Origin: Naegleria gruberi
Lineage: Eukaryota
Assembly (NCBI GenBank): GCA_000004985.1
Contig: GG738853.1
Direction: 5' to 3' (one strand)
Length of the DNA: 64,000 bases
Shown here piece by piece: positions 30,892 through 62,986 of the stretch (the stretch's first letter is position 1; each line of letters starts with the position of its first letter). A model generated the notes under the pieces. It saw only the letters and a program-made list of their open reading frames with translations. It ran no database searches and was not told the origin of the DNA. The translations under genes were made by a program, and so were the position numbers.

Positions 30892-33087
30892 ATGGCCACC
30901 ACAACATCATCATTAACTTCTCTAATTCCTCCTCCAATATTATCATCCTCTCAACAACAACAAACACAATTGACGGATGTACCTCCATCATCGCAGAGTA
31001 CAACACAATTACCACCCGATGATGATTTGGATGCTTTGGACGAATTTGATGAATTGATGGCTTTCGTCAATGCTCCTATGGATACAAATTCTGAACAATG
31101 GCGTTTATTGAATCAAAATTCAAATGTTCCACCAGTGACAACAACAACTTCCTCTATTCCTCCTAATGATACAACAGTAAACAGTAGTGCTACTACATCA
31201 AATGTAACTGCACCAACTACTGAAAAGAAGAAAAAGACTACAAAAAAGAAGAAGGATGAAAAGGAAACCACCACTAAAAAGAAGGAAACAAAGAAGAAGA
31301 AGGATGATAAAAAAGAGGACAAGAAGGAAGATAAAAAGGAAGAAAAGAAAGAAGAAAAGGAAAAGAAGAAGAAAAAGAAGAAGGAGGAGCCATCTACTCC
31401 AAAGGATACTGTCAAACAAGAAGAGCCTGCTGTTTCCACACCAAAAGATCCCAATCTTAAGAAACCTGATATTTCATATTCTACAATGATTGCTCATGCA
31501 CTCATGTCAGCAGCTAATAACATGATGCCTCTCAAATCAATTTATTCTTGGATTTCCACAACTTATCCATTCTACGATCTTGCAGAGACTGGTTGGAAGA
31601 GTAGTGTGAGACATAATTTGAGCACAAATTCTAAATATTTCCGAAGAGTATCACCTGAAGAATGGAGACAATTAACTGGAGAAGAGAAAAAGTCAAAATC
31701 TAAAAAACAAGGCTCCTCAGATAAGAAGATGGCATTCTCTGTCTATGCACTTGTGACTGAGCATTGTGATGAAGTTTTGGGAACAAAGAAAGCCAAATCA
31801 GACAAGAAGGCATCCTCTTCTACTTCTTCTTTAACAACGCTTAGTAATGCTACTACAGCACCAGTTAGTTCATCATCTACATTACCTGCCAATAGTACTC
31901 TTTCTTCTTCTACTAATGCAACCACTGACCAAACAGCAATAACCTCAGAAGTGAAAGAAGTTAAGGAAAAAGAAACCAAGAAGAAGAAATCATCCACCAG
32001 TAGTGCAACAAAGAAGAGAAGTAGAAAAAAGTCCGAATCTACAGACTTGGATTTAAATGATGGCTTGTTGAACTTTGATGAAATTGCACCATCAATGAGT
32101 TTGGATAAACCAGAAAAGAAAAAGAAGAAGAAGACTTCTAAAAAATCAGAAACTCCTACAGCTAGTACAACTCCAGCTGCTGAATCTTCAACACCTGTGA
32201 CTCAAACCAATAACAACAATAATACCAATGTAACTACTCCCCAATTGTCACATTCCAGTTCCAATCAAAACTTCCAACACAGTACTCCAACTAATCAAAT
32301 TTCTATCACCCAAAATATTATGCCAAATACATCTCAACCATTGGCTCCAAAACAACCATTCCCTTTGTCAAATCAAATTCCTAATCAAATTCCACCAAAC
32401 CAAATGCCAAATCAAATGCCAAACCAAATGCCAAATCAGATGCCAAATCAAATACCTAATCAAATCCCTCGTCAAAGTACTAATAACTTGTTGGAAATGT
32501 TTGTTCAGAATGGAATGCTAAATGCCCAAGAACCTTCTTTTCTTAAAATTTTATTGGATGGAAATGGAGATTCATCAGCCAACAATCCATTATCAGCGCT
32601 CATGGGTCAAGGAGGTCAGAATATGAATCCAAACCAAGGACTCAATACAGCACCACTTGGTAATATGGTTGATTCACAGGGAAAGCAAATTGACCTTATT
32701 AATTTACTTTCAATGGTAACTGGAATGCCTCAACAACAAAACATGTCTCAATCTGGTATGTCTCAACCACCAATGCACCAAAACTTTTTAGATCCAAATA
32801 ACAGACTTGTTACACAAGGAAGACCTCCTAATTGGCCACCTGGTGCAGGCTTACCAAATCAACTTCAAGGAGGAAGGCCTTCTATGGGATCAGTTGTTGG
32901 TATGCAAAATCCTGGTCAATTCCCTGTACAAAATCCAAATATGAATCCATTAGGTCATCCAGGATTTAATCAATTCCCATTTCCCATGATGAACTACTCT
33001 CAAACACTTCTCAACTTTGATCCATCATCAATACTGCAGCAACAAGGTAATGGTGGTATTCCTCCCAATAATAACAATAATAAATAG
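30892..33087 (+). CDS. Forkhead (winged-helix) DNA-binding domain protein. This is the likely 3' portion of the same FHA-forkhead gene.
   Basis: Forkhead box at about nt 31462-31640: KPDISYSTMIAHALMSAANNMMPLKSIYSWISTTYPFYDLAETGWKSSVRHNLSTNSKYFRRV. It carries the invariant features KP..SY..LI..AI, F.YY, GW.NS[IV]RHNLS. The flanks are a K/E-rich block and Q/N/P-rich tandem repeats (NQMP)n. The reading frame is open upstream to nt 30790, overlapping the end of the FHA ORF. Confidence 0.7.
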   Translation: MATTTSSLTSLIPPPILSSSQQQQTQLTDVPPSSQSTTQLPPDDDLDALDEFDELMAFVNAPMDTNSEQWRLLNQNSNVPPVTTTTSSIPPNDTTVNSSATTSNVTAPTTEKKKKTTKKKKDEKETTTKKKETKKKKDDKKEDKKEDKKEEKKEEKEKKKKKKKEEPSTPKDTVKQEEPAVSTPKDPNLKKPDISYSTMIAHALMSAANNMMPLKSIYSWISTTYPFYDLAETGWKSSVRHNLSTNSKYFRRVSPEEWRQLTGEEKKSKSKKQGSSDKKMAFSVYALVTEHCDEVLGTKKAKSDKKASSSTSSLTTLSNATTAPVSSSSTLPANSTLSSSTNATTDQTAITSEVKEVKEKETKKKKSSTSSATKKRSRKKSESTDLDLNDGLLNFDEIAPSMSLDKPEKKKKKKTSKKSETPTASTTPAAESSTPVTQTNNNNNTNVTTPQLSHSSSNQNFQHSTPTNQISITQNIMPNTSQPLAPKQPFPLSNQIPNQIPPNQMPNQMPNQMPNQMPNQIPNQIPRQSTNNLLEMFVQNGMLNAQEPSFLKILLDGNGDSSANNPLSALMGQGGQNMNPNQGLNTAPLGNMVDSQGKQIDLINLLSMVTGMPQQQNMSQSGMSQPPMHQNFLDPNNRLVTQGRPPNWPPGAGLPNQLQGGRPSMGSVVGMQNPGQFPVQNPNMNPLGHPGFNQFPFPMMNYSQTLLNFDPSSILQQQGNGGIPPNNNNNK

Positions 33088-34751: not shown

Positions 34752-37073
34752 ATGTCAACATCCTTGTTATTGTTGGTGGATCAATTGACAACATTTTACG
34801 GAAAGAAACTTTTAAACGATCATTATGCTCTCACCTATTTAGATAATAATTACTATTCATTGGCTTTCATTGGAGTCATGTTATGTTTGGTGTGGGGAGT
34901 TTTAATTACTGCGCCAATTCATATCATTTCTTGGGTTTTGTATTTTGTGGGTGCTAGGAAATCATCATCATTAAATTCATCATCTTTTGGAATTGATGAT
35001 GATGATGAGGAGGATGTTGTTGGAAGTTCTGGTTTTGGTGGTCAGAAACAACCTTCCCTAAAGAAACAAATTGAAAAGAGTAGAAAATTCGGAAAGGTTT
35101 TTAATGTCTTGACAAGTGTTTCATCATTTGTTTGGTGTTTGTTTGCTTCTTACTTTTTGGTGCTTGTTTCTACATTTTCTAGAGCTCATTATATTTTGAC
35201 AGCTTTGGTGATTACTATTATGTGGTCTGTTTGGTTGATTAATAGTTTTGTTTTGGATTTAAAGTGGATTATTGTTATGATTTATTATAGACTTGTCAAG
35301 AAGGTTGATTTGACAAGTGTCAGCACATCATCTAGTCAAATGATTCAAGAATCACAAGAATTGGCTGATGATGGTGAAGCACTTTTGGAAGATAACTCTT
35401 CTGGTTTACAAAGAAGACCACAATCTTCATCAAAATTAGATCCAAAGAAAGCAGTTACTGTTACTCGTTCCTTGCTTTTGGATTCATCAAAACCATACAT
35501 TTCTAGAAAGCCAATTCTTGCTGTCATTTTGATTGTTATTGCTACTACAATTATTCTCATTGTTTCTGTCATGACAACTTTCATCTTTGCTGATATTTGT
35601 ATTGCCTATGATCCTATTGAAATTTCTACACATTTCACTCGTACTGTCTTGTCAAATGGCAAGTGTGAAAGAGATACTGTCTGTTATTCTTATTTGACAG
35701 TTCCAGAAAAGATGGATCATCAAATGATTGTCAATTTCCAACTCTATACTTATGAATTCTATAAGGGCTTTGTTGAATATAAGAGATTCGATCCAGCTGA
35801 TGAAGATTTTGATCCAAAAGATGTTGAATTCAATGAATATCATCAAGCCAGTTGCTTTAAATTGGATAATATTGAAGAAGAAAGCAGATATCAATGTTTT
35901 GCTGAATTGACTGATTTGAAACCTGGTTCTTCTTATATTCTTCGTGCTGGTTATTCTGCATCTGAAAGTACTGATGCTCATGATTTCCACTACGATAATG
36001 AATATCTCAAATTTAGAACAATTCCATCAGAGGATGATTCCTCCAAGATTGTTTCATTCATTAATGGAGGTGATTTGGCATGGAGAGGACCAACCTATGC
36101 TCTCTCCAAAGCTGTCAATACTTTGGGATATGGAAATGTAGATAATGCTCCATATTTCGCTATTGTTGGTGGTGATATTGCCTATGAAAATGGATGTGCC
36201 TACTGTTATAGAAGATGGGACGATTGGTTCTTGAATTGGAATAAGTTTATGAAGACAACTGTTCAATACGATTCTGATAATTCTACCATTCATCAATATA
36301 CACTTCCAATTTTGACAACTGTTGGTAATCATGAAGGTGGTAATTTCAAGAGACCTAGATCAGATGATGCATTCTATATTAGATTATTCCCAATGTCAAT
36401 TAGTGGAGCAACTGAAAAGATTGTTTCTGATCCACAAACTACAAGAAAATTGCAACACGTCCACTATCTCTCCAAGCATACCATGATTGTTGCATTGGAC
36501 AGTTGGGTTCACGAATCTCCACAAGACCAAATTGAATACTTGACCAATCTCTTTGAAAAATCAGTCACTGCAGGAACCTACAAGAATCGTTTCATTATTA
36601 TTCACCATCCAATGTATACTTCAGGTAGTGTTGGAGACATTGATAAGGAAATGATTGCCAAATGGGAATCCCTCTTCCAAAAGTATGGTATTACAGCAGT
36701 TTTTGAAAATCACGTTCATACCTACAAGCAAACTTATCCAATTCGTGATGGTAAGGTTGTAACAAAGACCAGTGAACAAACTGATTCAACATCTGTTGCA
36801 TTCAGTTACAAGAGAGAATCTGCTGACAATAGCAAGGACGGAATTATGTATTTCGGAGATGGAAGTTGGGGAGTTACCTATTGGAATGCTTCCTTGAGAA
36901 AGAGCAGTGGACTCTTCAGACAAATTGGAGTTTTGAGTCATGTCTATCATGTCAAATGTAGATCATTATCGAATGCTATTTCATTCACTGAATTGTATGC
37001 TCTTGGATATAATTCTACAACTGGAGCTGTTTCTGAATTTGGTAAATCTCGTGTCAGAATTGAAGTTCACTAA
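34752..37073 (+). CDS. Membrane-anchored purple-acid-phosphatase-like metallophosphoesterase
   Basis: ATG at 34752. Several N-terminal hydrophobic helices (nt ~34830-35620). An FN3-like segment follows (QCFAELTDLKPGSSYILRAGYSA). Then the calcineurin-like motif set: INGGDLAW, GGDIAYENG (GDxxY), TTVGNHEGG (GNHE), IIIHHPMYTS and FENHVHTYKQ (GHxH). 773 aa, single exon. Confidence 0.7.
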   Translation: MSTSLLLLVDQLTTFYGKKLLNDHYALTYLDNNYYSLAFIGVMLCLVWGVLITAPIHIISWVLYFVGARKSSSLNSSSFGIDDDDEEDVVGSSGFGGQKQPSLKKQIEKSRKFGKVFNVLTSVSSFVWCLFASYFLVLVSTFSRAHYILTALVITIMWSVWLINSFVLDLKWIIVMIYYRLVKKVDLTSVSTSSSQMIQESQELADDGEALLEDNSSGLQRRPQSSSKLDPKKAVTVTRSLLLDSSKPYISRKPILAVILIVIATTIILIVSVMTTFIFADICIAYDPIEISTHFTRTVLSNGKCERDTVCYSYLTVPEKMDHQMIVNFQLYTYEFYKGFVEYKRFDPADEDFDPKDVEFNEYHQASCFKLDNIEEESRYQCFAELTDLKPGSSYILRAGYSASESTDAHDFHYDNEYLKFRTIPSEDDSSKIVSFINGGDLAWRGPTYALSKAVNTLGYGNVDNAPYFAIVGGDIAYENGCAYCYRRWDDWFLNWNKFMKTTVQYDSDNSTIHQYTLPILTTVGNHEGGNFKRPRSDDAFYIRLFPMSISGATEKIVSDPQTTRKLQHVHYLSKHTMIVALDSWVHESPQDQIEYLTNLFEKSVTAGTYKNRFIIIHHPMYTSGSVGDIDKEMIAKWESLFQKYGITAVFENHVHTYKQTYPIRDGKVVTKTSEQTDSTSVAFSYKRESADNSKDGIMYFGDGSWGVTYWNASLRKSSGLFRQIGVLSHVYHVKCRSLSNAISFTELYALGYNSTTGAVSEFGKSRVRIEVH

Positions 37074-39450: not shown

Positions 39451-40995
39451 TTAAACTTGCATGATGGGAGGAGTAGACGAATCTTCCATTGTTGATTTTA
39501 ATTCTTTTGAATCCAAATTCGAATCAGAAACATTCAATTCAGAAATTTGATTTTCCAATTCCTTAATTGCATTAGTTTGTTCCTTCATACAGCTTTCTAA
39601 TTGCAAGAGTTGATGCTTTGATTGAGTTAATTCATTGATTAGTCTAGTTTCCTTCTCAACATAAACTTTCTGAAATTCGAATTGTTCCAAATCCAATATG
39701 TTTTTCAATTCTTCCACTTGTTTTCTGTATTGTTCCAACTCTAAATCCTGAACTAGCTCTTCTGTCTGAATGTCAATATTTTTTCTTGACACTTCTCTTG
39801 ATCGAATAAAATTCAATAAACCAAAGAAGAGTTTCTTCTGAATTCTAATAGTCTTGTTCAATTCTTCTTGTTTCACTCTAAATTCAACAGTATTTTGTTT
39901 CATCTTACTTTCCACATTCGAAACTAAATTTTGCATATCACTGTACATTTTCGTACTTTCTCTTTCCATTCTATTCTTCAAATCTTCCTTCTCATCCATC
40001 AATTCTTTAATCTTTTCGTTTAATTCGTCCACTTTCTCGTTATACTTTTTAAGGAAGGCATCACGACACTTAATTTGTACAGATGCGCATTTCTCTTCGA
40101 ATTCCTTCATGCACAATTCTATTTTTTCAGTCTTTTCTTGATCCATCTTTTCGTAATGTTTCTTCATCATTCGTTCTCTTTCTTTAAACTCCCTTCTTGT
40201 GTTGGCATACTTGTGCATGATATCTTCTACTTGACGTTTCACATAGTCCATTCTCACATAGACAATTCCACCTACTACCATTGTATATTTCGAATCATCC
40301 CATTGTTGTGTATTTGCCTCTAATTGACTAGTTGGTGATGGAATTAATTGTTGTGAATCTTGAACTGTTGCAAGGAATGAACTAATTTTGGAGGTGGATG
40401 ATAATGGAGAAATACCTGCAAACAATGGAGAACTGGTAGTAGTAGGTGTGCTTGGAGTGGAAATATTAATTAAAGGTGATTGAATACTAATAGTTTCAGT
40501 ATTATTATTATTCCTTTCTGGTGAATTTTGTGGAGAAATTGGAGGTGAAATTGATATGGAAGTGGAAGGAGTGGATGGATCATTGATAGTAGGAAGAATG
40601 GAGAGAGTTGGAATTGGAATAGTAGTAGTAGCAGAGGTATTAGTAGCAGAAGCAGCAGAAATTGAAGTTGGTGGAGCATAAACTAGAGCAGAAGCTGATT
40701 GTACTTTTTGCAATCTTCTTCTCCTCATGGATAAACTCGAGACTTTTTCTCTCATTTGGTCCATGCTCATGGCACTCAATGTTCTACCACGAGGTGATGT
40801 TGTTGTTTGTTGATTCTCATCACCACATGTTGATGAATTTGAGAGTGAGGATGGTGAAGGTGGAAGGAGTAAGGATGTTGAACGTGTTGGTGCATATTCC
40901 TTAACAGAGAGATGAGGATCCGAACTCGATTCGAAGGAAGCAATGGTGGACGAGGTATTCTGATCGTGAGAGAGCAATGCTTCAAGTTTGTTCAT
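39451..40995 (-). CDS. Coiled-coil protein with a Ser/Thr/Pro-rich N-terminal half
   Basis: ATG at 40995, 514 codons. The C-terminal ~250 aa are heptad-rich E/K/L sequence (ELNEKIKELMDEKEDLKNRMERE...). No catalytic motif. Confidence 0.5.
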   Translation of the reverse strand: MNKLEALLSHDQNTSSTIASFESSSDPHLSVKEYAPTRSTSLLLPPSPSSLSNSSTCGDENQQTTTSPRGRTLSAMSMDQMREKVSSLSMRRRRLQKVQSASALVYAPPTSISAASATNTSATTTIPIPTLSILPTINDPSTPSTSISISPPISPQNSPERNNNNTETISIQSPLINISTPSTPTTTSSPLFAGISPLSSTSKISSFLATVQDSQQLIPSPTSQLEANTQQWDDSKYTMVVGGIVYVRMDYVKRQVEDIMHKYANTRREFKERERMMKKHYEKMDQEKTEKIELCMKEFEEKCASVQIKCRDAFLKKYNEKVDELNEKIKELMDEKEDLKNRMERESTKMYSDMQNLVSNVESKMKQNTVEFRVKQEELNKTIRIQKKLFFGLLNFIRSREVSRKNIDIQTEELVQDLELEQYRKQVEELKNILDLEQFEFQKVYVEKETRLINELTQSKHQLLQLESCMKEQTNAIKELENQISELNVSDSNLDSKELKSTMEDSSTPPIMQV

Positions 40996-41384: not shown

Positions 41385-43944
41385 TTAGTTATTTTTCTCA
41401 TCATTGGGTGGAGTGCTCAATTCTACTGGAATATTGGATTCAAGGGAAGATTTGGACATGTGCATTCGTGGTGAGTTTGAGCCAACTGGTGATTGACCAC
41501 TGTTTGATTGAGGAGATCCAACACTGCTTGTATTGGATTGACTAGTTGATGGCATGAAAGTTCTAGCTCTCTTTTTAGTTTGTTGATAATATTGAGAGGA
41601 GCTTCCAGTGTCCAATCTTCCAAAGGTTACTTGTTCCAAATTGGGTTCTTCCTGTTGTTGTTGTAATTGTTGATGATGAATGATGGTGTTGAATGCTGAA
41701 TTGTACGGAGTTGGTCTCATGGTTCCGGATCGGAGTTTGCTTGTGGAGGAGCTATTGGTATTCAAACTCTTATTGAGATAATCTCTTGGGGAAGGTGTTG
41801 ATTCATTTGGAGAGGAATATGCTTGGTCAACCAGAGAAGATGTAGAGTTTGATTGCTTAATAACACTTCCAGATCTCAATTGATTGTAATGTTCGTGAGC
41901 TAGTAAATTATCAGTGGATGGTTCTACAATGAGTGCTTGGAAATTTCTGTAATTATTTGGATCATCCATTAATAGAGATTGAGATAATTGTTGATTCTTG
42001 AATTGATCAATCCTCTTCTTATAACAGCAATATCCGCAACAAATGATATACTTTACAAAGGATCTAATTTCAGAAGATCCCAATAAGAATGCAACTGTTC
42101 CAATTCAATTCATTAAAATGTTTAAATATTGTAATACTATTAATTACATACTTCCAAAGAAAAATCCTCTCAAAGGAACGAGTCCATTAAAAAAGAAATT
42201 GTAAAATACCAAAATAAAAGTATCATCCTCAGAATTAGTTAACATGGCTATTATATTGTAATACCAATAAGCAACTTCAAATACGCCACAAATGACATAT
42301 GGCAGAATTAAGAGAGAAAGTCGCAATATTACAGAAATTTGCCTTCTTTTGGTTTCCTTCTTGGGAATGACTTGAAGTTGAGTGGAATTTAAATATTTTC
42401 CAACATATCTCCAAATAATTATTAATAATATAAAGTTTACAATGACAGTCTTTTGATATTTCAAAAAATTATTTTAAAATTCGTTCACATTAGTTAAAAT
42501 TTTCATAAAACTCCTTCAAAACTAAACCTACCAAAGTAAAATAAATATTCCATGAAATGTAAATTGCTGTAACAAATCCAGTTTTGACAGTTTTCGAAGT
42601 ATCCACCAAAGTAGTAATAAATCTGAATATGAACAACAATAAAAACACAAATAATCCAACTCCCCAAGCAACCACATGGAATGAAATTTCATATCTCATG
42701 AATGGTGACATTTTCTTCAACTTGTTCATATTTTCACTGAACATGGAATTTCTTTTTGGAGCAGTACTATCCAAATCCATCGATTGATCCAATAATCTTC
42801 TTTGATCATTTCTAAAACTAGAAATATCATGGAAATTATGTTGATGCAATTGACTAGTTTGAATAACAGCCGATTGATTACTTTGTCTCAAATCAATCGA
42901 AACTAAATGTTCACTCATTGTTGAAGATTCTTGATTATTTTCATTCATTTCACTATTTTCAGTTGTGCAATCATTGTCAATTTCCTTAAAATTTGAATTT
43001 GTGAATGAATTTTTTGAAGTATTATTCGAATTGGGCGGAGAAATTTCAGAAAGTTGTTTTTCCATCCATTTCACATTGGTAGTTGTTGCATAAATGGCAA
43101 ATGCTACAACGACACACCAAGTGGCAGTTGCTAATGATGCTGAAAAGTTGATGTGTGCAAAAAGTCGATTAATGATTGTGGCACCTGCTTTGAGTTCATA
43201 TCTAGCGATCCAAGTTGTAATATTTGAGCTATTGTCAGTTGTCAAATTTTGATCTATTGACATTATGAGGAATGGTAGTGGAATTGAGTCAATTTGAATT
43301 GGATTGAAAGAATCAATTTGAAATCCAACACGATTTTGAGCCAAGTTCATTCCAATACTTGAAGTGACATTTGGTGTGACAGCTGGTACCAAATTCCTAC
43401 TAAACATAACATCTGGAGCAACTCTAGAACACACCCACCACCACAAAATAAACAAAATTCTCGAAACTGATGAAATCAAGTCAGCAATCAACAAAGCCAA
43501 CATGCATCTCCTAATAAATTGACGTTTCTTCTTATTCACAACTTGTCTCTTCTGCTGCACACGATTTCCAACTTGTAAAACTGAAAAATTTGAAAAAATT
43601 TCTTTTTTTGTTTTTGAAATTAATTTAATTTCATTTCCAAAAACCCAAGATTGCTCCAAATAGAAAATTATTAAAATGGTAAAAGTTGAAAAAACAGAAA
43701 GTGTGGAAAAGATGAGGGCGATGATATCACTGGCGAAATCTGCATCTTGGTCATGAACACCATTGTCAATTATTTTGATTGTGGAATTGACATTTTGATT
43801 GCTGACTGATGGTGTCAATAAGAGATTTGTTTGATCCGATGTTGTTTTTTGATATGTAGTGAGATGTATTCTAGCTGTCACCAGAGTAATTTGAAAAAGT
43901 ACTATCAAAATCACAGAAGAGAAGCAAATTGTGGCGTTTGACAT
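41385..43944 (-). CDS. Polytopic (7TM-receptor-like) membrane protein, three exons
   Basis: Minus-strand exons 43944..42532, 42449..42152 and 42094..41385. The introns are GTAGGT...AAAAG (82 nt) and GTATGT...AACAG (57 nt). The phases fit and link the three track ORFs. Signal/TM N-terminus MSNATICFSSVILIVLFQITLV. At least seven hydrophobic helices. A long Asn/Ser-rich loop. A Ser-rich cytoplasmic tail in exon 3. The acceptor of intron 1 was chosen from several in-frame candidates. Confidence 0.45.
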
Positions 43945-44270: not shown

Positions 44271-47200
44271 ATGAAATTAATTTATTATATACTATTCCTA
44301 CTTTTTCTACTAACTTTCTCTAATTGTTCTTCTTCCTTCGACTTTCGAATATTTTCTCTTCCGAAAATTCAAAAGTATAATACCAAAGATATCCAACAAC
44401 AAGTAACGAATACAACAAGACGAATAGATAATCTAGCTTCGGAACTATTCGAATACTGTCCATTTCCTTTCGGGACGAATACTTTAGGTTGTTCGATGGT
44501 TCAGAAGAAATTTATTCTAAACTCTTCAATGACACTTCCCGAAATTTTAGCAAATATTACGAAAACTATTAATGAAACGATTAGTTTTCCATTAGTTTCG
44601 GATATTATCTTCCTTGTGGATGTTCATATTGAAAGAAATATTTCTCGTTCGGACTGTGCTTCGTTTCTGCAAGTTGAATTATTCGAAAGTAAGAATAATT
44701 TGCAATATTTGCAATTGTATTTAAGATTTATTGGAAACGGCAATGGAATTGATTGTGATAACCAAGGATTCTTTGCATTTACTATTAATTCATCAAAAGT
44801 TACAAGATTAGTCCAATTTCAAAATGTCACCTTTCAATCGGTTCAATTATTTGGTGAATTACTTATATTTAGAGATGTTAACTTTGATGGTGGAGTTACT
44901 GTTTATGAAAATGCAATAGTTATGTGGAAAGTAAATGGTGAACTACCTATTGGAAAGATTTCAATAGAAGAAAGTCGATGGAGATCAATTCTATTGGTGG
45001 ATTCGAATTTTGCAGTCGAATCTTTGAATTATTTGGAGAAGGTAACTTCATTGTGGATTATTAGAGTGGCATTTAAATTGAATAACGTATTCCAATTGGT
45101 GAATATTGATGATTTGATATTGGAACATGTTAAATTCATGCCAGAAATTTATGATAATCGAATTTACAAATCTCCATTTGTATCCTTACGATTTATCAAA
45201 TATGTAGTATTATTTAGAACTGAAATTGATGGATTTTCATATCAAACTGCTTTGAGTATTGAATATTCTGTTAATGTATTGATTTCATACTCATCCTTTT
45301 CGAATAATCATGTAAATTCCAAAGATTCCAATACGAATATACTCCTAGCAAAGGGACTCAATCAATTACATGTTCTCTATTGTAACTTTTTCAATAATAT
45401 TGCAGAGTATGGTTCTGTTTTTGAAATTACTGGAATAAGTTCTCTATTAATTAGTATGAATTCATTTCACAATAATACTATTGCTAATAGTGCTTTATAT
45501 TTGGGAAGATATGTCGATACGCATTATAGCTATGTGAGGATTCAGAATTCGATATTTACCGATAACAAAAGTTATTCGAAGGGAGGTGCTCTAACCATTG
45601 ACAAGTTATCCTCAGAACCTAATTTAAGCATTGAAGTTTATGGATGTTCCTTTTCTGAAAATAGTGGTGAATTTGGTGGTGCTATTCATTCATTTTCCAA
45701 ATTATTGGTCACTGGAGGAATGTTTTATTCCAATACAGCAGTTCAACAGGGAGGTGCTATCTTTGCCAAGGATGGCCTCTCTCTTAGAAGCACATATTTT
45801 ATTAATAATTCAGTAATTGATACAAGTCTAACCTATTGTACAGATAATAATTGTATTGGTAGTGGAGGAGCTGTTTCGTTTCTCGTTGAAAATGGATCAG
45901 ATTCATCCCTAGTGATATTCAGAAGCTCTTTCGATGGTAATACAGCCACTAGAGGAGGTGGTATTAGTATTAGCAGACCCGATGAGTTGAGTATTGAAGG
46001 TAATACTTTTAAAGATTGCAAAGCTGATTTTGCTGGAGGAGCACTTTTCATTAGCTCAATACTTAATCAAACATTTTCTAGCTCGCTAATTGAAAGTAAC
46101 GAATTTTCAAATAATCAAGGATTGACTTATGGGGATGATATGAGTTCAATAGTTTACACAGTCAATTGGAAATACTCAATTGATGGAAAACAGTATAATT
46201 ATTTAGATTCGAATGGAATCAAAATTTATCCTGGGCAGGTATTCTCACTTTTTCCTGAAGCTTTTGACATTTTTGACCAATACATTCCAGTATTGAAGGA
46301 AACAAGTGAATTAGGCATCAAAAATAGTGATAAATTCCAATTAGAAAGACAAGGTTATTCATTCGGTAACATATTCATTTCCGTTATCAATCAAACAGAT
46401 TTTGACTCAACAAAATTGACATTGGTGAGCGCGTTTAGTGTTACCATTTCTGAAATTCCAATTATTGTTGAACCATGCCCTTCTGATACAAGTTTAAAAC
46501 CAGCCAATTATGGAAAATCTTATGATTTCATTTGTCAGCAAAAGCCATCCTATGATTATGTTATTGCTGTGGCTGTAACTCTAACCGTACTCACATTATC
46601 ATTCTCTGTGGGAATGGTAGCAGTTTGTACCTATTTATGTGTTAAAATAACTCGAAAAGTTAATTATTGGGTTAAAAGAGATAAAGCAGAAAAGGACATT
46701 GAGAAGAGATTGTTGGAAAACGAAATAACCTACATGGAGGATCATTCTCTACAAACTGTCAACAGTACAGGATCTGGTAAGAGACAACAAGTGTCCTTCA
46801 TCATTAGTATCGATCAGATATTTCCAGAAAAGAAGATTGGAGAAGGTGGATCAGGAGTTGTCTATTTGGGAAAGTGGCATCACCATCCTGTTGCTATCAA
46901 ATGTTTGAAAATTGAAGACACTGCCAATTCTGATGAAATTGAAAAGGAAGCTGCAATGTTATGTCGATTGAGACATCCTAATATTGTGCTATTTTATGGT
47001 GTTTCACTAACACAACACAAGCAATACCTCGTAGTTGAATATTTGGAAAGAGGAAGCTTGGAAAAGTATATTCAAGATATGAAACGTCAAGAAATATCAG
47101 TAACCTTCTCTGAAAAGTTGAAACTCTTAATTGACATTGCATGTGGAATGGTTTATTTACACAGTTTGAAAATAATTCATAGGTAAGTGTGTTCATATTA

Positions 47201-47961
47201 AGAATATTAGAATTTTACCAATGAAAATTAGAGATTTGAAACCTGCCAATATTTTGATGGATGCCAACTGGACTGCCAAAGTTTGTGATTTTGGAATTTC
47301 AAAAATTATGGAAAGCACTGCTCATACGACAACTCTCTATGCAGGAACACTCTTCTACTTGGCTCCTGAATTATTACAATCGGAACATGATGAAAAAAAC
47401 AAAATTACAATCTCTGTGGATGTTTTCAGTTTTAGTATTATAATGTGGCAATTATTCTTTGAGGATAGTCCTTATATTAATACGAAATCTCCCAAACTTC
47501 ATCTATTTCAATCGGTCAACTTGAATGAAAATGGTCAACAAAAGAAAACTTCTGAACATTTGACACCATTTTCAGTATTGGCAAGAGTTTTGAAAGGTGA
47601 AAGACCTTACATTCCATGGCAAGGATTTAACAATGAAGCAGATTCTGAAATCATGATGGAATGGCTCGAAGAATACATGCCAGAATTTTCAAACTATTAT
47701 CCTCATCAAAAAGAACATGTTGTCAGTCTCGTATCAGATTATATGGAGCTAATGAAAGCTTGCTGGTGTGAAAACTATCAAAACAGACCAAATTTTGAAA
47801 CCATTCTCGGTTGTCTAATGATTTTGAAACAACACATTGATAGTTTACAGACTAATAATGTAAACAGCCCACAACATGATGGCTCCACTCCATCCAGTGA
47901 TAGGATTTTACTCCAATCAAGCACAGATATCCAACAAATCCTATCTACTAGTAGAAAATAA
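44271..47961 (+). CDS. Receptor-like TKL-type protein kinase with an extracellular Pmp-like (GGA[IL]/FxxN) beta-helix repeat domain
   Basis: Exons 44271..47182 and 47232..47961. The intron is a 49-nt GTAAGT...TTAG that splits the catalytic loop: IIHR|DLKPANIL. Signal peptide MKLIYYILFLLFLLTFSNCSS. At least six GGA[IL]/GGG motifs are each preceded by FxxN (FSENSGEFGGAIHSF, FYSNTAVQQGGAIFA, FDGNTATRGGGISI, FKDCKADFAGGALFI, ...). TM helix VIAVAVTLTVLTLSFSVGMVAVCTYLCV. Kinase motifs IGEGGSGVVYLGKW, VAIK, HRDLKPAN, CDFGISK. Confidence 0.75.
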
Positions 47962-48625
47962 CGTTGCAACCATCAATTCCGCCAAAACCTGACAGTCTTA
48001 TTCATGATTCACAAAAGGACATTTCAACAATTTATGAAATTTTCAAGGAAAATAGTTTTGAATCAGATGAATGGCTATACGAATTGGAACAACAAAAGAA
48101 GAATTTGAAATATAAGGACTTTGAAAGATCTTTCCAAGTATTTGACTGGGTAAGAGAAAGCAAAATTGACCAATCAGAAGTTATGGAAAAATTGTTAGAG
48201 TATATGAACATGTTGAACTAATCCAGAAGATAGTTTAATCATTTGTTGCAAGTTTTTGATTGTTTCACAAGGGAAGGAAGTTCAGAATATGATACATTCC
48301 AAATGATTCTCAATTATCACACAACAGTCAATCAGAATATTAGATCATTTGCAACAGATTTTGAGATTAGCAATATTGCATTACAAAATTATTAAACTAA
48401 TTCTTTTATCAAGAAGTTCAACAAACGAGGAGCTTTGTTGTATCTCATCTTTATTTGTCATTTATTGATTTTACTAATGGTTAAGCTGTTCCATTCTATC
48501 TCTGATATTATCATTGGTTATCGTAAACGATTTGATTGAGATAGACAAATTTGGACAGGTGTTGATTGAAGAGATCAAACAAGTTTCTAATGATTATTAA
48601 ATTGGCAAATGAAACAAACAGAAAA

Positions 48626-52595: not shown

Positions 52596-54805
52596 ATGTC
52601 CAATACGCAAACAGCTGCTGCTGTGGCGTTGCCTTCCAAGGCATCACACGCTACCAGTACTCTTACAAGTCCACAAACAACAATAGAATCTTCTTCAACA
52701 TCATCATCACAAAAACAAATCGGAGAAGAACACCATCACTTTAAAGAGGAATTATCATCAACCATGTTCAAACCACCTACATCACCTGCTAAAGGTACTT
52801 CCCATTTCACCCAAACTAGCACCACCACAAACCCTAAAAGTACCTCCTCCTCCGATGAATTTAATTTAGATGCCAGGTTGAGAGAGAGATGTAATAATAA
52901 TTTAGAAAAAGTAATGTTGTTCATTGTTGCCAATAGAATCAACGTGATGGTCGTCTTTTTAACTACCTATATTCTAGCAATACTGTATGGTCGATTACAT
53001 ATTTCATGGCAGGGAAATTTGCTTAATATAAGTGTAATGCTATTACAAATATTAATCAATAGGAAAAACATTAATTCTGCAATGTCGTATGGAGATTCTT
53101 TTGCCAGTAGTGACGGTTATGAAAAGGTGAGAATGATCTTGTCCTTTACAATATTCACTGTTAGGTTTTTCCTTCATCCAACTCACAAAATTATTTTCAT
53201 TCCTCTTACTTTTATGTGGTTTACTGGCTCGAATAATGTTTACTTGAAATCAACTTTTTGGGGATTGTTTCCAACTTATTATATGACTGCTCTGTTTGTT
53301 GGGAGTTTGGGATACTTTGGTGTGATTGAATTTATTAATAATGGATTTTCGCCCGAGTTGGTAAACATGTTAATTGAATACTTGGGAATTACTTGTTGTG
53401 TTTGGATATTTTCATATTATATGGTAAATGTGACTGGCTATCTAAAATATAAGGTGGATAAATTACAGGAAACTAGGCTGGCACTGGAACATGCCTTAGA
53501 GGCAAGAAGTCGTTTCATGGCCCACATTTCACACGAGTTCAGATGTCCTATCATGTCCAGTATTGGATGTTTAGAATTGTTGAAAGAAACACCACTGAAT
53601 GAAAAGCAGAATGACTTAGTCGATACCATTGTTTCATCAAATAGTGTCTTGTTACTTTTAATAGAAGATATTTTACAAATTGTAAAAATTGAGCATGAAA
53701 TTGCTGAGGTGCCAAATTCTCAAAATGTGAGAAGTTTTAATCTCTATGAGTCACTCTTATCAATGAGAGGAATAATTTCTGGATATGCATCAATTTTCAA
53801 AGTCAAGTTAACATTTCAACTTGACGAACAAATTAAGAATAAGCTTGTATTGTCAAACGCTTCAAAGCTTCATCAAATACTTTCGAATCTCCTCACAAAT
53901 GCAGTGAAAGCATCAAAACCGGATGGAGAGGTGGTATTGTCATGTCAAGTTATTAACAGAAAGGATGACAATCTATTAGTGAGATTTAACTGTATTGATC
54001 ATGGAAATGGTATTCCACCACACTTAATTGAATCAATATTTGAACCATTTGTTCAACTTCAAAATAACCTTCAATCAAAAGTACCAAGGTAAGTGAAAAC
54101 CATTTCAAATAATCATTTACTAACTCTCTCAGTTCTGGATTGGGTTTAACAACCGTTTCTCATCTTGTCAAATCTATGGAAGGAAGGATTGACGTCTTTT
54201 CTGAAGTTGGAAAGGGTAGTAATTTCGTAATTGATTTACCGTTTAAATTGTCAGATAATCAACTGATCAATGAAGTTGACTCAATTATGGAAGCAGAAAA
54301 TAAGAGAATTGAAATGCATCTCAATGTTCACCAAAATTATCTTTCCTTAATGTCAAATCTTGAACAACGAGAAAAGACAGTTGAAGAGTCTCAATTCAGT
54401 TCAGAGATTATTATTGCAGAGGATAATCCAATTAATAGAAAGGTTATTGTAAAAATGATTAATGGTCTAGGATACAAAACTGATTTCGTTGCAGATGGAG
54501 CTGAATTGGTTAAGAGTTTTAACCCTAAAACGCACAAAGTAGTAATAACAGATATGGTATGTAATTTCAAAGTTCAATAATTAATTTAATATTCTACGTA
54601 GAATATGCCAAATATGAATGGGTTGGAAGCTGCAAAAGAGCTACGACAAAAATATGGTTCAGACTTTAGTATTTATCTTCTTACAGGAAATGTAACTATT
54701 TCCTTATCAAAAATTGATGATATTGGTTTAATTGATGGTATTCTAACCAAGCCATGTTCTAAAAGAGATTTGGAAAAATATATTTCATTAAGGTGTACTA
54801 AATAA
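52596..54805 (+). CDS. Membrane-bound hybrid sensor histidine kinase (HisKA + HATPase_c + receiver)
   Basis: Exons 52596..54088, 54133..54556 and 54602..54805. The introns are GTAAGT...CTCAG (44 nt) and GTATGT...CGTAG (45 nt). Their phases restore the G2 box (KVPS|SGLGL) and the receiver motif (VITDM|NMPNMNGLEA). An S/T-rich N-terminus is followed by about 6 TM helices. H-box SRFMAHISHEFRCP; N-box LLTNAVKAS; G1 DHGNGI; receiver aspartate in IIIAEDNPINRKV...DM. Confidence 0.8.
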
Positions 54806-55010: not shown

Positions 55011-57515
55011 CTAATTTTCTAAAGCATTTATATTCTTAAAGGGTGGTGTAGTAGCCAATTTTGAAACATTTTGAAATAAAAATCCCTTGTAGTATGGCAA
55101 CAAGTTGCAAGGAAAGTACTCTTCACTTGCAACATCTTGATGACTTATTAAAATAACCTTGTCATAATGTTTGTGTTGTTCCAATTTCTTCATTTCTTCA
55201 TCATGTATTCTAGTTGTTGTAATCATGACGAAATATACTTCAACATTCTCGAACTCTTTGAGTGCAACATCTGAAAACTGATTCTTATCCAACCACTGTA
55301 CAATACTCAAATTAGATTCCAGTGAATAATTTTTGTAATGGATGAGGAATAGAGATTCTTTAGGTTTACAAATATTTAACCAAAAATGTGCATCAACGCA
55401 GGGATGCGTATCAGAAGTGTATGAATAAATTTCTGAGGGATTGTTCATACATTTGGAGCTGTCAATTTTAACAATATTATTCTCTTTGTCTTTAGAAATG
55501 AACGTGACATGAGATACAATCTTGTACTCATTTTCATCCAATTCAAATAACTTGTTAGAATCATCACCAGTCTTACAGGATGGAAACAATTCCTTAATAG
55601 TGATAAGAGGTTTTGTGAGTTGTCTAAGAATTCCAATCCTATAACAAATACATTTCAAATCAATTCTCTCAAAATCTCTGGGATGAATTTCTTGTTCTTT
55701 TAGTATCTTACTTGAAATGTAAGGATCTTTCTTGACTAGTTGTCTAAAGTATCGTGGTGCTATATACAGGCGACCTGTTGGAGTTTTATAAATCAATCCT
55801 TTCAAGAAGAGATCCTTTTCTTCTCTTGTCAGTGAAACATTCAATCCACACAATAAACGTGGTAATAATTCGGATTGAACTGATGGGTCGTTGAATGATT
55901 CTTGCTTAACAAGATACCCTTTAATTACTTTATCGATATTCTTTTTCAATTCTGGAAATAGAACATCAGACTGATTTTTCCATTCTTGAAATGTCACCTT
56001 TGTTAAAAAGGACGCAATTCCTCTCAAAGTAAGGTTCAACACTTCAGGTATTATTAAGGCCTCAAATAGCAAAACTCCCATTCTTCGTATAGTTACATTG
56101 TTGGTAATGCTCATCATATTAATCATTGTAGTTGAACATTTAAAATAACTATTACTTAAATATTCCTTTAAAATTGTACCCAATTGTGATGGGCAAAGAG
56201 GTGGTAATGTTAATTCTTGATATCCAAACTCTGTTTCATCAAATCGTAGATCAGAGATGTGGTCAAGACCTGATAGAATTGGAATCAAACAAACTCTACT
56301 TAAATTTAAATTGACAGTGTCAGTGTTCACCATATAATATCCAATGGCGTATAAAGGACGTTGCCATGGAGTAAGTGTTGAATCATCCTTAATAGTTCCA
56401 AACATTTGGTATAGGAATTGAACCTCATCCAGAGAAATGGTCATGAGTAAAATTTCATCGTTGTTAATAAATTGTTCCAATTTTCTTGTAATGTTTTGTA
56501 ATGTGAAGAAATTGGTGGTATAATAAAGAGTTTTAAAGTAAGGATTTAGCAATTCCACTAAATAACTGACTGGACACCCCATTAATCTTGCTAAAATTCG
56601 TAATCCAAACATTTTCCCTTCAGTTTCTTGTTTGGAATAACCGTTAATCTCATCACTTGTTAAGGTGTTTCCAGTGTCTAAGGAAAGATTACAATGTAAT
56701 TTTCTATATTTATGTTCAGAATCCATGTTCATTGTAAGAACAATGTTTCGAATTTCCTTACAAGCTCTTGACTTTCCACTACCTGTACCATTGGATAGAA
56801 TTCCATACTTAAAATATCCTTTTCTTTCAATTGGTTTCGTTTTGTTTGTATGAAAAATGTTCAAATCATGTCGCACTAATTCTTCCACATCATGGGCAAA
56901 TGTCTCTCGATTATAAAATCCTTGAATTGTTCCTTCCTCAGGAGTGTAGGATTTATCGACATTATTAAGGAAACATTCTTTCAAGTTAACCTTAACAAGA
57001 GATTCGAACCAATCAAATGGAGAATCATCAAATTCTTTCGGGAGTTTTAAACTGTCTGAAACAATGTTTGTCTTCAATGTTTCCATCTCAATTAACCAAT
57101 TAGCAATTGTTCGGGCAATATCTTTTGATGGAATTTTATCATCTTCCATCAAATCTTCAACCATTAATCGTTTGGCTTCTTCTGGTGTTTTCTTGGATTC
57201 GATGGCTGTTTTATATTGTTCAATAGCCAAGATTAAATGACTTCCACAAAGAGCATTCAATGGAATTTTATCATTTACTTTTTCCTTCTTCAAAACATCA
57301 ATTTCATCTTGGTCGAGTGATAACAAAAGATCTTCACTAACAAGTTTCAATACTTCCGAATGTGATAAATGCTTAAATGAATTATAATAATTTGGTTTTG
57401 CTCTTTTTGAAGAAGAGTTATCATCAAATAAGGAATATTTATATTTTCTTTTTAATTCTTCGGTTGGTTCTGCTTCTAGTTGTGGTGGTGAAGTGATGGT
57501 AGGTGGATGGTACAT
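55011..57515 (-). CDS. Large (834 aa) single-exon protein with a Walker A P-loop (GTGSGKS). Function unknown.
   Basis: ATG at 57515 (MYHPPTITSPPQ). GILSNGTGSGKSRACKEIRNIV lies about 235 aa from the N-terminus. No clear Walker B motif or other signature found by eye. It is convergent with the histidine kinase gene. It is the last long ORF before the gene-poor terminal region. Confidence 0.5.
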   Translation of the reverse strand: MYHPPTITSPPQLEAEPTEELKRKYKYSLFDDNSSSKRAKPNYYNSFKHLSHSEVLKLVSEDLLLSLDQDEIDVLKKEKVNDKIPLNALCGSHLILAIEQYKTAIESKKTPEEAKRLMVEDLMEDDKIPSKDIARTIANWLIEMETLKTNIVSDSLKLPKEFDDSPFDWFESLVKVNLKECFLNNVDKSYTPEEGTIQGFYNRETFAHDVEELVRHDLNIFHTNKTKPIERKGYFKYGILSNGTGSGKSRACKEIRNIVLTMNMDSEHKYRKLHCNLSLDTGNTLTSDEINGYSKQETEGKMFGLRILARLMGCPVSYLVELLNPYFKTLYYTTNFFTLQNITRKLEQFINNDEILLMTISLDEVQFLYQMFGTIKDDSTLTPWQRPLYAIGYYMVNTDTVNLNLSRVCLIPILSGLDHISDLRFDETEFGYQELTLPPLCPSQLGTILKEYLSNSYFKCSTTMINMMSITNNVTIRRMGVLLFEALIIPEVLNLTLRGIASFLTKVTFQEWKNQSDVLFPELKKNIDKVIKGYLVKQESFNDPSVQSELLPRLLCGLNVSLTREEKDLFLKGLIYKTPTGRLYIAPRYFRQLVKKDPYISSKILKEQEIHPRDFERIDLKCICYRIGILRQLTKPLITIKELFPSCKTGDDSNKLFELDENEYKIVSHVTFISKDKENNIVKIDSSKCMNNPSEIYSYTSDTHPCVDAHFWLNICKPKESLFLIHYKNYSLESNLSIVQWLDKNQFSDVALKEFENVEVYFVMITTTRIHDEEMKKLEQHKHYDKVILISHQDVASEEYFPCNLLPYYKGFLFQNVSKLATTPPFKNINALEN

Positions 57516-59697: not shown

Positions 59698-59747
59698 NNN
59701 NNNNNNNNNNNNNNNNNNNNNNNNNNNNNNNNNNNNNNNNNNNNNNN
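59698..59747. other. Assembly gap (50 N)
   Basis: Run of N characters. Confidence 1.
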
Positions 59748-60391
59748 AGTCAACATTTACATTCCCATGGTACCATTTCTGATTACTAGGACATGAAATT
59801 AAATTCTATATCATTATAGATCATCTACATTATGATGGTAAAGTTTCAATAGGTGGTCCTTTTTCCAGATTTCCACATATTCATACAAGTTCATACAAGT
59901 TGACCCTATGATGGTTGAGGGAAGAAATCTTTAAATATGAAAGTTAAAATAAATTTGATATTCGATGTTTACTCATCAAATGGAACATTTTCATGTCAGG
60001 ATTCAATATGTTTTCATGAGAAACTCAAAAGTTATTGTTGACCTATTGTACCTCACAACTTCCCTTTTCACTTGATACTTTTATACCTACAGACATGAAC
60101 TTTTGAAATTTTATATGAAAGTGATTATGAATGTTGTTAATGATGATATAGACTATATAATCTCATTAAAGGATTTTGAAACTATCATCCTTCCTATGGT
60201 TTCATTTTACAATTTTTAATCTGACATTATTTACAAGGTTGATATTTTATAAATTGAAAAACTAAATATACCACATTGTTCTACTCATCATTTACAATCG
60301 AATGATATAAAATTTAATGATATTTGAATAAGTTTATATATTTGGGCTAGGGTTTGAACGTTGGGTTTAGAAGAATTCTATTTTTAGAATT

Positions 60392-60808
60392 GGGTTTGGG
60401 TTTGGGTTTGGGTTTGGGTTTGGGTTTGGGTTTGGGTTTGGGTTTGGGTTTGGGTTTGGGTTTGGGTTTGGGTTTGGGTTTGGGTTTGGGTTTGGGTTTG
60501 GGTTTGGGTTTGGGTTTGGGTTTGGGTTTGGGTTTGGGTTTGGGTTTGGGTTTGGGTTTGGGTTTGGGTTTGGGTTTGGGTTTGGGTTTGGGTTTGGGTT
60601 TGGGTTTGGGTTTGGGTTTGGGTTTGGGTTTGGGTTTGGGTTTGGGTTTGGGTTTGGGTTTGGGTTTGGGTTTGGGTTTGGGTTTGGGTTTGGGTTTGGG
60701 TTTGGGTTTGGGTTTGGGTTTGGGTTTGGGTTTGGGTTTGGGTTTGGGTTTGGGTTTGGGTTTGGGTTTGGGTTTGGGTTTGGGTTTGGGTTTGGGTTTG
60801 GGTTTGGG
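60392..60808 (+). repeat. (GGGTTT)n telomere-like hexamer array, about 70 units. It is preceded by degenerate variants and truncated by a 50-N gap at 60809-60858.
   Basis: Perfect 6-nt periodicity can be read directly. The lead-in at 60340-60391 carries degenerate copies (GGGCTAGGGTTTGAACGTTGGGTTTAG...). Confidence 0.95.
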
Positions 60809-60984
60809 NNNNNNNNNNNNNNNNNNNNNNNNNNNNNNNNNNNNNNNNNNNNNNNNNNTCTCATTGATACATGTCTAATTATCATGTTTTATGATATATA
60901 ATTGAAATAATTGAAATTTATCATATATATAGGGAGATAACCAATTAGGATGAGAGAAGGGGAAGTTACGCTCACAATTTACCA

Positions 60985-62986
60985 NNNNNNNNNNNNNNNN
61001 NNNNNNNNNNNNNNNNNNNNNNNNNNNNNNNNNNNNNNNNNNNNNNNNNNNNNNNNNNNNNNNNNNNNNNNNNNNNNNNNNNNNNNNNNNNNNNNNNNNN
61101 NNNNNNNNNNNNNNNNNNNNNNNNNNNNNNNNNNNNNNNNNNNNNNNNNNNNNNNNNNNNNNNNNNNNNNNNNNNNNNNNNNNNNNNNNNNNNNNNNNNN
61201 NNNNNNNNNNNNNNNNNNNNNNNNNNNNNNNNNNNNNNNNNNNNNNNNNNNNNNNNNNNNNNNNNNNNNNNNNNNNNNNNNNNNNNNNNNNNNNNNNNNN
61301 NNNNNNNNNNNNNNNNNNNNNNNNNNNNNNNNNNNNNNNNNNNNNNNNNNNNNNNNNNNNNNNNNNNNNNNNNNNNNNNNNNNNNNNNNNNNNNNNNNNN
61401 NNNNNNNNNNNNNNNNNNNNNNNNNNNNNNNNNNNNNNNNNNNNNNNNNNNNNNNNNNNNNNNNNNNNNNNNNNNNNNNNNNNNNNNNNNNNNNNNNNNN
61501 NNNNNNNNNNNNNNNNNNNNNNNNNNNNNNNNNNNNNNNNNNNNNNNNNNNNNNNNNNNNNNNNNNNNNNNNNNNNNNNNNNNNNNNNNNNNNNNNNNNN
61601 NNNNNNNNNNNNNNNNNNNNNNNNNNNNNNNNNNNNNNNNNNNNNNNNNNNNNNNNNNNNNNNNNNNNNNNNNNNNNNNNNNNNNNNNNNNNNNNNNNNN
61701 NNNNNNNNNNNNNNNNNNNNNNNNNNNNNNNNNNNNNNNNNNNNNNNNNNNNNNNNNNNNNNNNNNNNNNNNNNNNNNNNNNNNNNNNNNNNNNNNNNNN
61801 NNNNNNNNNNNNNNNNNNNNNNNNNNNNNNNNNNNNNNNNNNNNNNNNNNNNNNNNNNNNNNNNNNNNNNNNNNNNNNNNNNNNNNNNNNNNNNNNNNNN
61901 NNNNNNNNNNNNNNNNNNNNNNNNNNNNNNNNNNNNNNNNNNNNNNNNNNNNNNNNNNNNNNNNNNNNNNNNNNNNNNNNNNNNNNNNNNNNNNNNNNNN
62001 NNNNNNNNNNNNNNNNNNNNNNNNNNNNNNNNNNNNNNNNNNNNNNNNNNNNNNNNNNNNNNNNNNNNNNNNNNNNNNNNNNNNNNNNNNNNNNNNNNNN
62101 NNNNNNNNNNNNNNNNNNNNNNNNNNNNNNNNNNNNNNNNNNNNNNNNNNNNNNNNNNNNNNNNNNNNNNNNNNNNNNNNNNNNNNNNNNNNNNNNNNNN
62201 NNNNNNNNNNNNNNNNNNNNNNNNNNNNNNNNNNNNNNNNNNNNNNNNNNNNNNNNNNNNNNNNNNNNNNNNNNNNNNNNNNNNNNNNNNNNNNNNNNNN
62301 NNNNNNNNNNNNNNNNNNNNNNNNNNNNNNNNNNNNNNNNNNNNNNNNNNNNNNNNNNNNNNNNNNNNNNNNNNNNNNNNNNNNNNNNNNNNNNNNNNNN
62401 NNNNNNNNNNNNNNNNNNNNNNNNNNNNNNNNNNNNNNNNNNNNNNNNNNNNNNNNNNNNNNNNNNNNNNNNNNNNNNNNNNNNNNNNNNNNNNNNNNNN
62501 NNNNNNNNNNNNNNNNNNNNNNNNNNNNNNNNNNNNNNNNNNNNNNNNNNNNNNNNNNNNNNNNNNNNNNNNNNNNNNNNNNNNNNNNNNNNNNNNNNNN
62601 NNNNNNNNNNNNNNNNNNNNNNNNNNNNNNNNNNNNNNNNNNNNNNNNNNNNNNNNNNNNNNNNNNNNNNNNNNNNNNNNNNNNNNNNNNNNNNNNNNNN
62701 NNNNNNNNNNNNNNNNNNNNNNNNNNNNNNNNNNNNNNNNNNNNNNNNNNNNNNNNNNNNNNNNNNNNNNNNNNNNNNNNNNNNNNNNNNNNNNNNNNNN
62801 NNNNNNNNNNNNNNNNNNNNNNNNNNNNNNNNNNNNNNNNNNNNNNNNNNNNNNNNNNNNNNNNNNNNNNNNNNNNNNNNNNNNNNNNNNNNNNNNNNNN
62901 NNNNNNNNNNNNNNNNNNNNNNNNNNNNNNNNNNNNNNNNNNNNNNNNNNNNNNNNNNNNNNNNNNNNNNNNNNNNNNNNNNNNNN
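60985..62986. other. Assembly gap (2002 N)
   Basis: Run of N characters. The six-frame ORFs crossing it are artefacts. Confidence 1.

Follow-up and report, generated by a model that had tools for sequence, protein, structure and literature searches.

A receptor-like protein kinase gene with a predicted Pmp-type beta-helix ectodomain in Naegleria gruberi

A 64,000-nucleotide stretch of Naegleria gruberi DNA (contig GG738853.1 of assembly GCA_000004985.1), hereafter called the window, carries a gene at positions 44271-47961 that raises a simple question. Can a repeat module known from chlamydial Pmp proteins serve as the outer part of a eukaryotic receptor kinase, and is the gene that joins the two genuine? 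A first-pass annotation, made by a model from the sequence, had proposed such a receptor. According to this proposal, Pmp-type FxxN and GGA[IL] repeats precede a single transmembrane helix and a complete TKL-like kinase domain. Our analysis points in the same direction. The gene very probably encodes a type I receptor-like Ser/Thr kinase in which a rigid Pmp-type beta-helix stands on an immunoglobulin (Ig)-like stalk, and which belongs to a small Naegleria-specific family.

Gene structure and integrity of the locus

The locus comprises a single plus-strand gene of two exons, with a coding sequence (CDS) of 3642 nt for 1213 amino acids. The interval 44271-47961, as originally proposed, corresponds exactly to the CDS from start to stop. 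A continuous open reading frame (ORF) of 971 codons runs on the plus strand from 44271 to 47186 and ends in ...LKIIHR, followed by a stop at 47184-47186. The remainder of the kinase gene is found in another frame, in an ORF at 47221-47961. Excision of 47183-47231 (49 nt, GTAAGT...TTAG) fuses the exons in frame and yields CAT AG/A GAT TTG AAA CCT GCC AAT (the slash marks the junction), which encodes HRDLKPAN. The 49-nt intron that had been suggested to split the HRD catalytic loop is therefore recovered, in phase 2 and inside the Arg codon. A related gene on the metagenome contig L001 (protein P0033) contains a 44-nt intron (GTATGT..ACAG) at the identical position between HR and D.

The ectodomain query was 100% identical to an N. 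gruberi "predicted protein" of 754 amino acids. The public record for the locus (XP_002668634.1, EFC35890.1, NAEGRDRAFT_76450, UniProt D2W4W2) derives from a 7,485-nt scaffold, and its model is incomplete at both ends. It begins at the internal Met218 and halts at IIHR in the unspliced intron, so that the signal peptide, the first 217 amino acids and the entire kinase C-lobe are missing. The two-exon model given here corrects this truncation. Starting 3 nt past the stop codon, a further plus-strand ORF of 85 amino acids (47964-48221) encodes a charged, helical-looking peptide. A C-terminal extension of the kinase into this ORF was considered and rejected, as no plausible splice donor was found and the relatives stop soon after the kinase.

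One unbroken ORF covers the ectodomain, the transmembrane helix and the kinase N-lobe, the intron is spliceosomal, and the gene has a GC content of 0.327, which resembles that of the remaining window (~0.31-0.37). These observations bear on the idea that the locus is an artefact, that is, a bacterial Pmp-like gene joined to a eukaryotic kinase by faulty assembly or annotation, a bacterial contamination or a decaying pseudogene. This idea draws on the prokaryotic origin of the nearest repeat-only relatives, on the fragmentary public gene model and on scaffold gaps within the window, though these are far from the gene. It is further opposed by the intact state of every catalytic residue and by the recovery of the same architecture elsewhere: in two further N. 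gruberi genes (NAEGRDRAFT_80827 and NAEGRDRAFT_70310), in N. fowleri (FDP41_011595) and on a metagenome contig of independent origin, whose gene has its intron at this very site. Given an unbroken ORF, a spliceosomal intron, a base composition like that of the window and paralogs of the same design, an origin as chimera or contaminant is excluded, and we regard an artefact of any of these kinds as barely conceivable. The locus is a genuine, intact, intron-containing N. gruberi gene.

Repeats and predicted fold of the ectodomain

Six GG[AG][ILV] motifs were found in the ectodomain, at residues 438, 469, 494, 532, 562 and 589. They are accompanied by ten FxxN-type motifs, which lie between residues 335 and 625 in a single register of ~25-30 amino acids. 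The initial claim of at least six FxxN...GGA[IL] units is borne out by these counts. In three rungs preceding the canonical six, FxxN is kept and the GGA positions are degenerate, and one rung carries a Cys-bearing insertion, TYCTDNNC. Such numbers were never reached when the ectodomain was shuffled 20,000 times with its composition preserved. Shuffled sequences contained on average 0.07 GG[AG][ILVM] motifs (maximum 2, observed 6) and 0.009 coupled FxxN-then-GGA pairs (maximum 2, observed 4). A six-frame scan of the whole window for GGA[ILV] revealed five occurrences within 45582-46035, which form the only cluster, and three isolated ones elsewhere.

Residues 1-765 were then compared by exhaustive phmmer search with 1.84 billion cluster representatives, and the best 150 matches were listed. 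The search returned 1652 matches at E<=1e-3 and 155 at E<=1e-10, with the best E values reaching 1e-36. Nearly all matches cover residues ~330-630 in several stretches. Sampled matches were strong Chlam_PMP/Beta_helix proteins (4.5e-37, 4.5e-48 and 2.4e-24). One match, of 3511 amino acids, came from a bacterial genome assembly, another belonged to Thermoguttaceae, and the algae Bryopsis and Scytosiphon were represented as well. A profile of the Naegleria-family ectodomains reached PF02415 and PF13229 proteins with E values down to 6e-60, among them autotransporter-domain proteins and Methanobrevibacter surface proteins. A word-indexed homology search with the ectodomain gave five matches only, the query made from the alignment did not recover the known paralogs, and a full-length search of 5.8 billion sequences at E<=1e-45, too stringent for a database of this size, yielded just the protein itself; the family members came from the exhaustive representative search. 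Since hundreds of Chlam_PMP/Beta_helix proteins were reached by phmmer and by the family profile, the repeat region is, as judged from sequence, a homologue of the Pmp-type beta-helix repeat, which is widespread.

The check with the Chlam_PMP hidden Markov model (PF02415) that had been recommended gave a divided result. Full-length relatives clear the gathering cut-off, with 24.8, 34.0, 35.4 and 41.2 bits. NAEGRDRAFT_80827, NAEGRDRAFT_70310 and FDP41_011595 pass in this way, whereas the protein encoded in the window does not. Its own scores for PF02415 and TIGR01376 are suggestive and are discussed below. The repeat had also been described as a classically bacterial autotransporter module. This holds only if no exclusivity is meant, because FxxN/GGA repeats are recorded in bacteria, archaea and eukaryotes, including single-pass proteins of Trichomonas (PMC10715098, PMC11166332, PMC6701047).

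For the fold, AlphaFold2 was run on a six-sequence family alignment. The resulting model had a mean predicted local distance difference test score (pLDDT) of 74.4 and a predicted template modelling score (pTM) of 0.71, with pLDDT values of 85-95 over residues ~260-620. Between residues ~177 and 625 the strand periodicity was typical of three-stranded beta-helix rungs, and the model conforms to a three-stranded right-handed solenoid of the pectin-lyase-like type. We consider the predicted beta-helix fold sound because of the independent sequence homology to Beta_helix/Chlam_PMP proteins. Both the repeat-family support and the beta-helix called for by the original proposal are thus at hand, in the relatives that pass Chlam_PMP, in the family profile (6e-60) and in the AlphaFold2 model. 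Most of the family-invariant ectodomain residues are concentrated in the predicted Ig-like stalk. Among the best 150 phmmer matches, this stalk is covered only in Naegleria-type proteins.

Beta-helices of this kind also occur in enzymes, and the ectodomain might be a surface-displayed polysaccharide lyase or glycosidase whose activity is reported or regulated by the kinase. Similarity of the beta-helix fold alone implies no catalysis, however, and the sequence identity to such enzymes is just 9-14%. A search of PDB sequences with the ectodomain profile returned no match at E<=1, and no Pfam enzyme family was detected. The relatives by sequence are Pmp-repeat surface proteins and not carbohydrate-active enzymes. 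An enzymatic role is accordingly very improbable.

Kinase domain, topology, family and surroundings

The Pfam model Pkinase matched the C-terminal part of the protein with 173.4 bits (7.9e-51; cut-off 31.7), and PK_Tyr_Ser-Thr scored nearly as high (171 bits, 3.3e-50). All catalytic motifs are present, namely GEGGSG (residue 857), VAIK (874-877), HRDLKPAN (970-977), DFG (990), APE (1015) and CW..RP (1148). By these motifs the domain should be an active RD-type Ser/Thr kinase, and a conventional tyrosine kinase would not be expected to have the HRDLKPAN loop. The best PDB match was Arabidopsis CTR1, a TKL kinase (8.9e-40, 140 bits), followed by ABL-type tyrosine kinases at ~119 bits and then by the TKL kinases DLK, ZAK and RAF at 104-108 bits. 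The 60 best PDB matches, down to 103.7 bits, included no RLK, IRAK or Pelle structure (a similarity ranking, not a tree). Of the initial description as a complete TKL-like kinase, completeness is upheld by all motifs. The TKL-like placement is reasonable and comes from the CTR1 best match and the catalytic-loop type only. Because the kinase lies nearest to CTR1/Raf/MLK and the top 60 contain no RLK or IRAK, the receptor layout looks like a fusion independent of the plant receptor-like kinases (RLKs). Between APE and CW..RP, residues 1040-1145 (window ~47440-47755) contain family-conserved C-lobe inserts, for example PFSVLARVLKGERPYIPW and ~40 extra residues. CTR1 and ABL lack these inserts, and their alignments end near residue 217-221 of the 341-amino-acid kinase query.

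One strong hydrophobic segment was detected at residues 763-791, in agreement with the single transmembrane helix noticed initially. The second-strongest hydrophobic window is the N-terminus, MKLIYYILFLLFLLTFSNC. Fifteen NxS/T sequons precede the transmembrane helix and two follow it. All heuristics concur in a predicted type I, single-pass topology with the N-terminus outside and the C-terminus inside. Outside the kinase domain, no segment is better conserved in the family than the juxtamembrane stretch YWVKRDKAEKDIEKRLLENE.

Relatives were found in N. gruberi (NAEGRDRAFT_80827, D2VPY1, 1213 amino acids; NAEGRDRAFT_70310, D2VMY8, 1103 amino acids), in N. fowleri (FDP41_011595, 1272 amino acids) and on two metagenome contigs (P0033 on L001, ENA ERZ929261; P0029 on L003, ENA ERZ27315067). 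The domain order is identical in all five full-length relatives, with an overall identity of 31-43%. For the three relatives from named species, end-to-end alignment gives 31-34% identity, and the kinase inserts, the juxtamembrane motif and the Ig-like stalk are shared by all. Their database names are only "uncharacterized" or "protein kinase domain-containing protein". In P0029, HQD replaces HRD and no intron is present at that point; another intron seemingly follows GTLFYM.

When 160 retrieved proteins were searched by phmmer with the kinase domain, kinases were confined to Naegleria-type proteins. Only these have a kinase among the best 150 representatives, which agrees with the earlier remark that the architecture is possibly lineage-specific. 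The juxtamembrane pattern matched 600 times in a scan of JGI metagenome contigs, and no match came from a relative. The family appears to be small and Naegleria-specific, and the architecture appears to be limited to it. Literature searches, including Naegleria Pmp, receptor kinase and kinome as well as locus tags and accessions, found no paper on such proteins or on this architecture. The main text of a survey of protist transmembrane kinases (TMKs) likewise contains no mention of Naegleria or Pmp (PMC10463195). The features of the gene are collected in Table 1.

Table 1. Features of the receptor-like kinase gene, with positions in the window
Feature	Residues	Position	Strand	Basis
Exon 1	1-970 and first 2 nt of Arg971 codon	44271..47182	+	uninterrupted ORF from first start codon past a stop; donor GTAAGT at 47183
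Intron, 49 nt, GTAAGT...TTAG, phase 2	within Arg codon of HRD	47183..47231	+	removal restores frame and HRDLKPAN
Exon 2	971-1213 and TAA stop	47232..47961	+	splice-joined ORF
Predicted signal peptide, MKLIYYILFLLFLLTFSNC	1-19	44271..44327	+	N-terminal hydropathy peak, small residues at -3/-1 (heuristic)
N-terminal ectodomain region	20-176	44328..44798	+	AlphaFold2 pLDDT mostly 33-68; aligns with paralogs including conserved Cys
Predicted right-handed parallel beta-helix, about 15 rungs	~177-625	44799..46145	+	AlphaFold2 strand periodicity
Six canonical Pmp-type rungs, paired FxxN and GG[AG][ILV]	420-603	45528..46079	+	motifs; sub-threshold PF02415/TIGR01376 matches; most phmmer alignments to Chlam_PMP proteins
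Predicted Ig-like beta-sandwich, membrane-proximal	626-760	46146..46550	+	family-invariant W633, PGQ654-656, F658, D666, C736-P737, C755
Predicted single transmembrane helix	763-791	46557..46643	+	top Kyte-Doolittle window (2.16), then KITRK
Juxtamembrane segment, motif YWxxRDKAEKDIEKRLLE	792-852	46644..46826	+	invariant W800, R803, E807, K808, E811, R813, L814, E816 in family alignment
Protein kinase domain, split by intron	853-1163	46827..47808	+	Pfam Pkinase; best PDB match CTR1; catalytic motifs
C-terminal tail and stop	1164-1213	47809..47961	+	paralogs likewise finish shortly past kinase domain

Elsewhere in the window, the second, unrelated beta-helix gene mentioned in the first-pass annotation was recovered at 22206-25091 (+). 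It encodes three PH domains (2.3e-51) and a C-terminal PF13229 Beta_helix/NosD-like region (4e-29). The N-terminus of its product is charged, of low complexity and not signal-like, and the protein is therefore probably cytosolic. A histidine kinase gene (HisKA and HATPase_c, 52596-54089, +) lies ~5 kb downstream of the receptor kinase. Further genes encode a Forkhead-domain protein (30892-33084, +; 1.1e-21) and a protein with CH and PH domains (18335-20089, -). The large ORFs 34752-37070, 39451-40992, 42490-43941, 55011-57512 and 7909-10047 had no Pfam match. Runs of N occupy 59698-59747, 60809-60858 and 60985-62986. Adjoining scaffold gaps near the window end, perfect (TTGGGT)n arrays were observed at 60390-60808 (~70 copies) and 63554-63999 (~75 copies). 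They look like telomere-type repeats inside the scaffold and could mark the end of a chromosome or a place where scaffolding has joined two ends.

Proposed function and comparison with known systems

Judged from beta-helix adhesins, lyases and further single-pass kinases, the product most likely acts in reception or adhesion, as a kinase whose outer part would bind to an extracellular polymer or surface. The FxxN/GGA motifs of Pmps lie buried within the rungs, and contacts are made by exposed loops that project from them (PMC10715098). The motifs therefore imply a rigid display scaffold and no specific ligand. In the mechanism we propose, exposed faces or loops of the beta-helix would bind a polymer or surface, most plausibly a glycan, a bacterial or a cell-surface component. 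Binding may cluster or reorient the receptors, and the signal would pass inward through the helical, conserved juxtamembrane segment. The RD-type kinase could then trans-autophosphorylate its Ser/Thr-rich activation segment, DFGISKIMESTAHTTTLYAGT. A cytoplasmic signalling output would follow, for instance control of feeding, adhesion or motility.

Several points weigh against a receptor kinase of this design. The evidence consists of sequence and predicted structure, from which we infer ligand binding, localisation and kinase activity, and activation by dimerisation is proposed by analogy to receptor kinases elsewhere. For the signal peptide and the topology, the basis is heuristic (hydropathy, KITRK and the sequon skew). 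The Chlam_PMP model PF02415 gives 16.1 bits on the target, below the Pfam cut-off of 20.6, and TIGR01376 gives 14.2, below a cut-off of 15. AlphaFold2 may yield over-confident beta-solenoids for repeat proteins (bioRxiv 10.1101/2024.10.30.621056), the alignment supplied to it was only six sequences deep, and the N-terminal ~175 amino acids are without a confident model.

As to the origin of the gene, Naegleria may have taken over an adhesin module of Pmp type from prokaryotes, perhaps from the PVC group or from other eaten or harboured bacteria, and fused it to a Raf/CTR1-like kinase. This would amount to an independent class of pattern-recognition or adhesion receptor kinases in Discoba. We regard such a scenario as unlikely. 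If true, the captured adhesin-kinase would serve to detect prey bacteria, endosymbionts or, in the case of N. fowleri, the surfaces of the host.

With this gene, the ectodomains known from eukaryotic receptor kinases come to include a Pmp-type beta-helix, in a domain combination that is not described in the literature. It provides a clean example of a lineage-specific sensor-kinase fusion beyond plants, animals and amoebozoans. A family member is present in the pathogen N. fowleri (FDP41_011595), whose surface kinases may deserve attention as drug targets or for a part in adhesion or sensing. No long-standing question is opened by the gene, as it is already known that the ectodomains of protist TMKs are mostly group-specific (PMC10463195).

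Chlamydial Pmps are type V autotransporters, and the Naegleria protein resembles them in the pairing of FxxN and GGA[ILV] at ~25-30 amino acids, which form rungs of a surface-exposed right-handed beta-helix. Many further prokaryotic surface proteins have rungs of this design. The Naegleria protein differs from chlamydial Pmps in that a signal peptide of eukaryotic type and one transmembrane helix anchor it, with a cytoplasmic kinase beyond, all as predicted, and in having only ~6 canonical rungs, themselves under the PF02415 cut-off. Neither the Pmp middle domain (PF07548) nor the C-terminal autotransporter beta-barrel (PF03797) was detected with Pfam at E<=1; the C-terminus is taken up by the transmembrane helix and the kinase. 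As both domains are absent, identity as a Pmp autotransporter is ruled out. The trypanosomatid beta-helix family DGF-1 was also considered for comparison and dropped, its authors reporting no N. gruberi match.

The trichomonad Pmp-like proteins (T. vaginalis TvPmp; PMC6701047) resemble it in layout. They are eukaryotic type I membrane proteins with N-terminal FxxN/GGA repeats and one C-terminal transmembrane helix. In an alternative reading, the Naegleria protein is primarily an adhesion or phagocytosis receptor and not a sensor for soluble ligands. Its beta-helix would adhere to substrate, to prey bacteria or to other cells, as in chlamydial and trichomonad Pmps, and its kinase would couple contact to uptake, as reported for some Entamoeba TMKs. 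The short tails of the trichomonad proteins, however, bear the endocytic motifs NPx[YF] and ATPITK (PMC6701047), and a motif search found neither in the Naegleria protein. In place of such a tail it has ~420 amino acids of juxtamembrane segment and kinase, and the organisms belong to Discoba and Metamonada, respectively. A primary role in adhesion or uptake is possible, and we put it forward tentatively. It overlaps with the receptor kinase proposed above and differs from it only in ligand and output.

As a receptor kinase, the protein can be set beside the Entamoeba TMKs, the oomycete leucine-rich repeat TMKs and the plant RLKs. These share with it a signal peptide, a lineage-specific ectodomain, one transmembrane helix and a cytoplasmic TKL-like kinase (PMC10463195, PMC2880585). 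Protist TMKs combine a conserved kinase with group-specific ectodomains, ~40% of which lie beyond Pfam annotation (PMC10463195). The activation logic is presumably common to all of them, by analogy. What sets the Naegleria protein apart from the ectodomain types described for these kinases is the predicted Pmp-type beta-helix on its Ig-like stalk.

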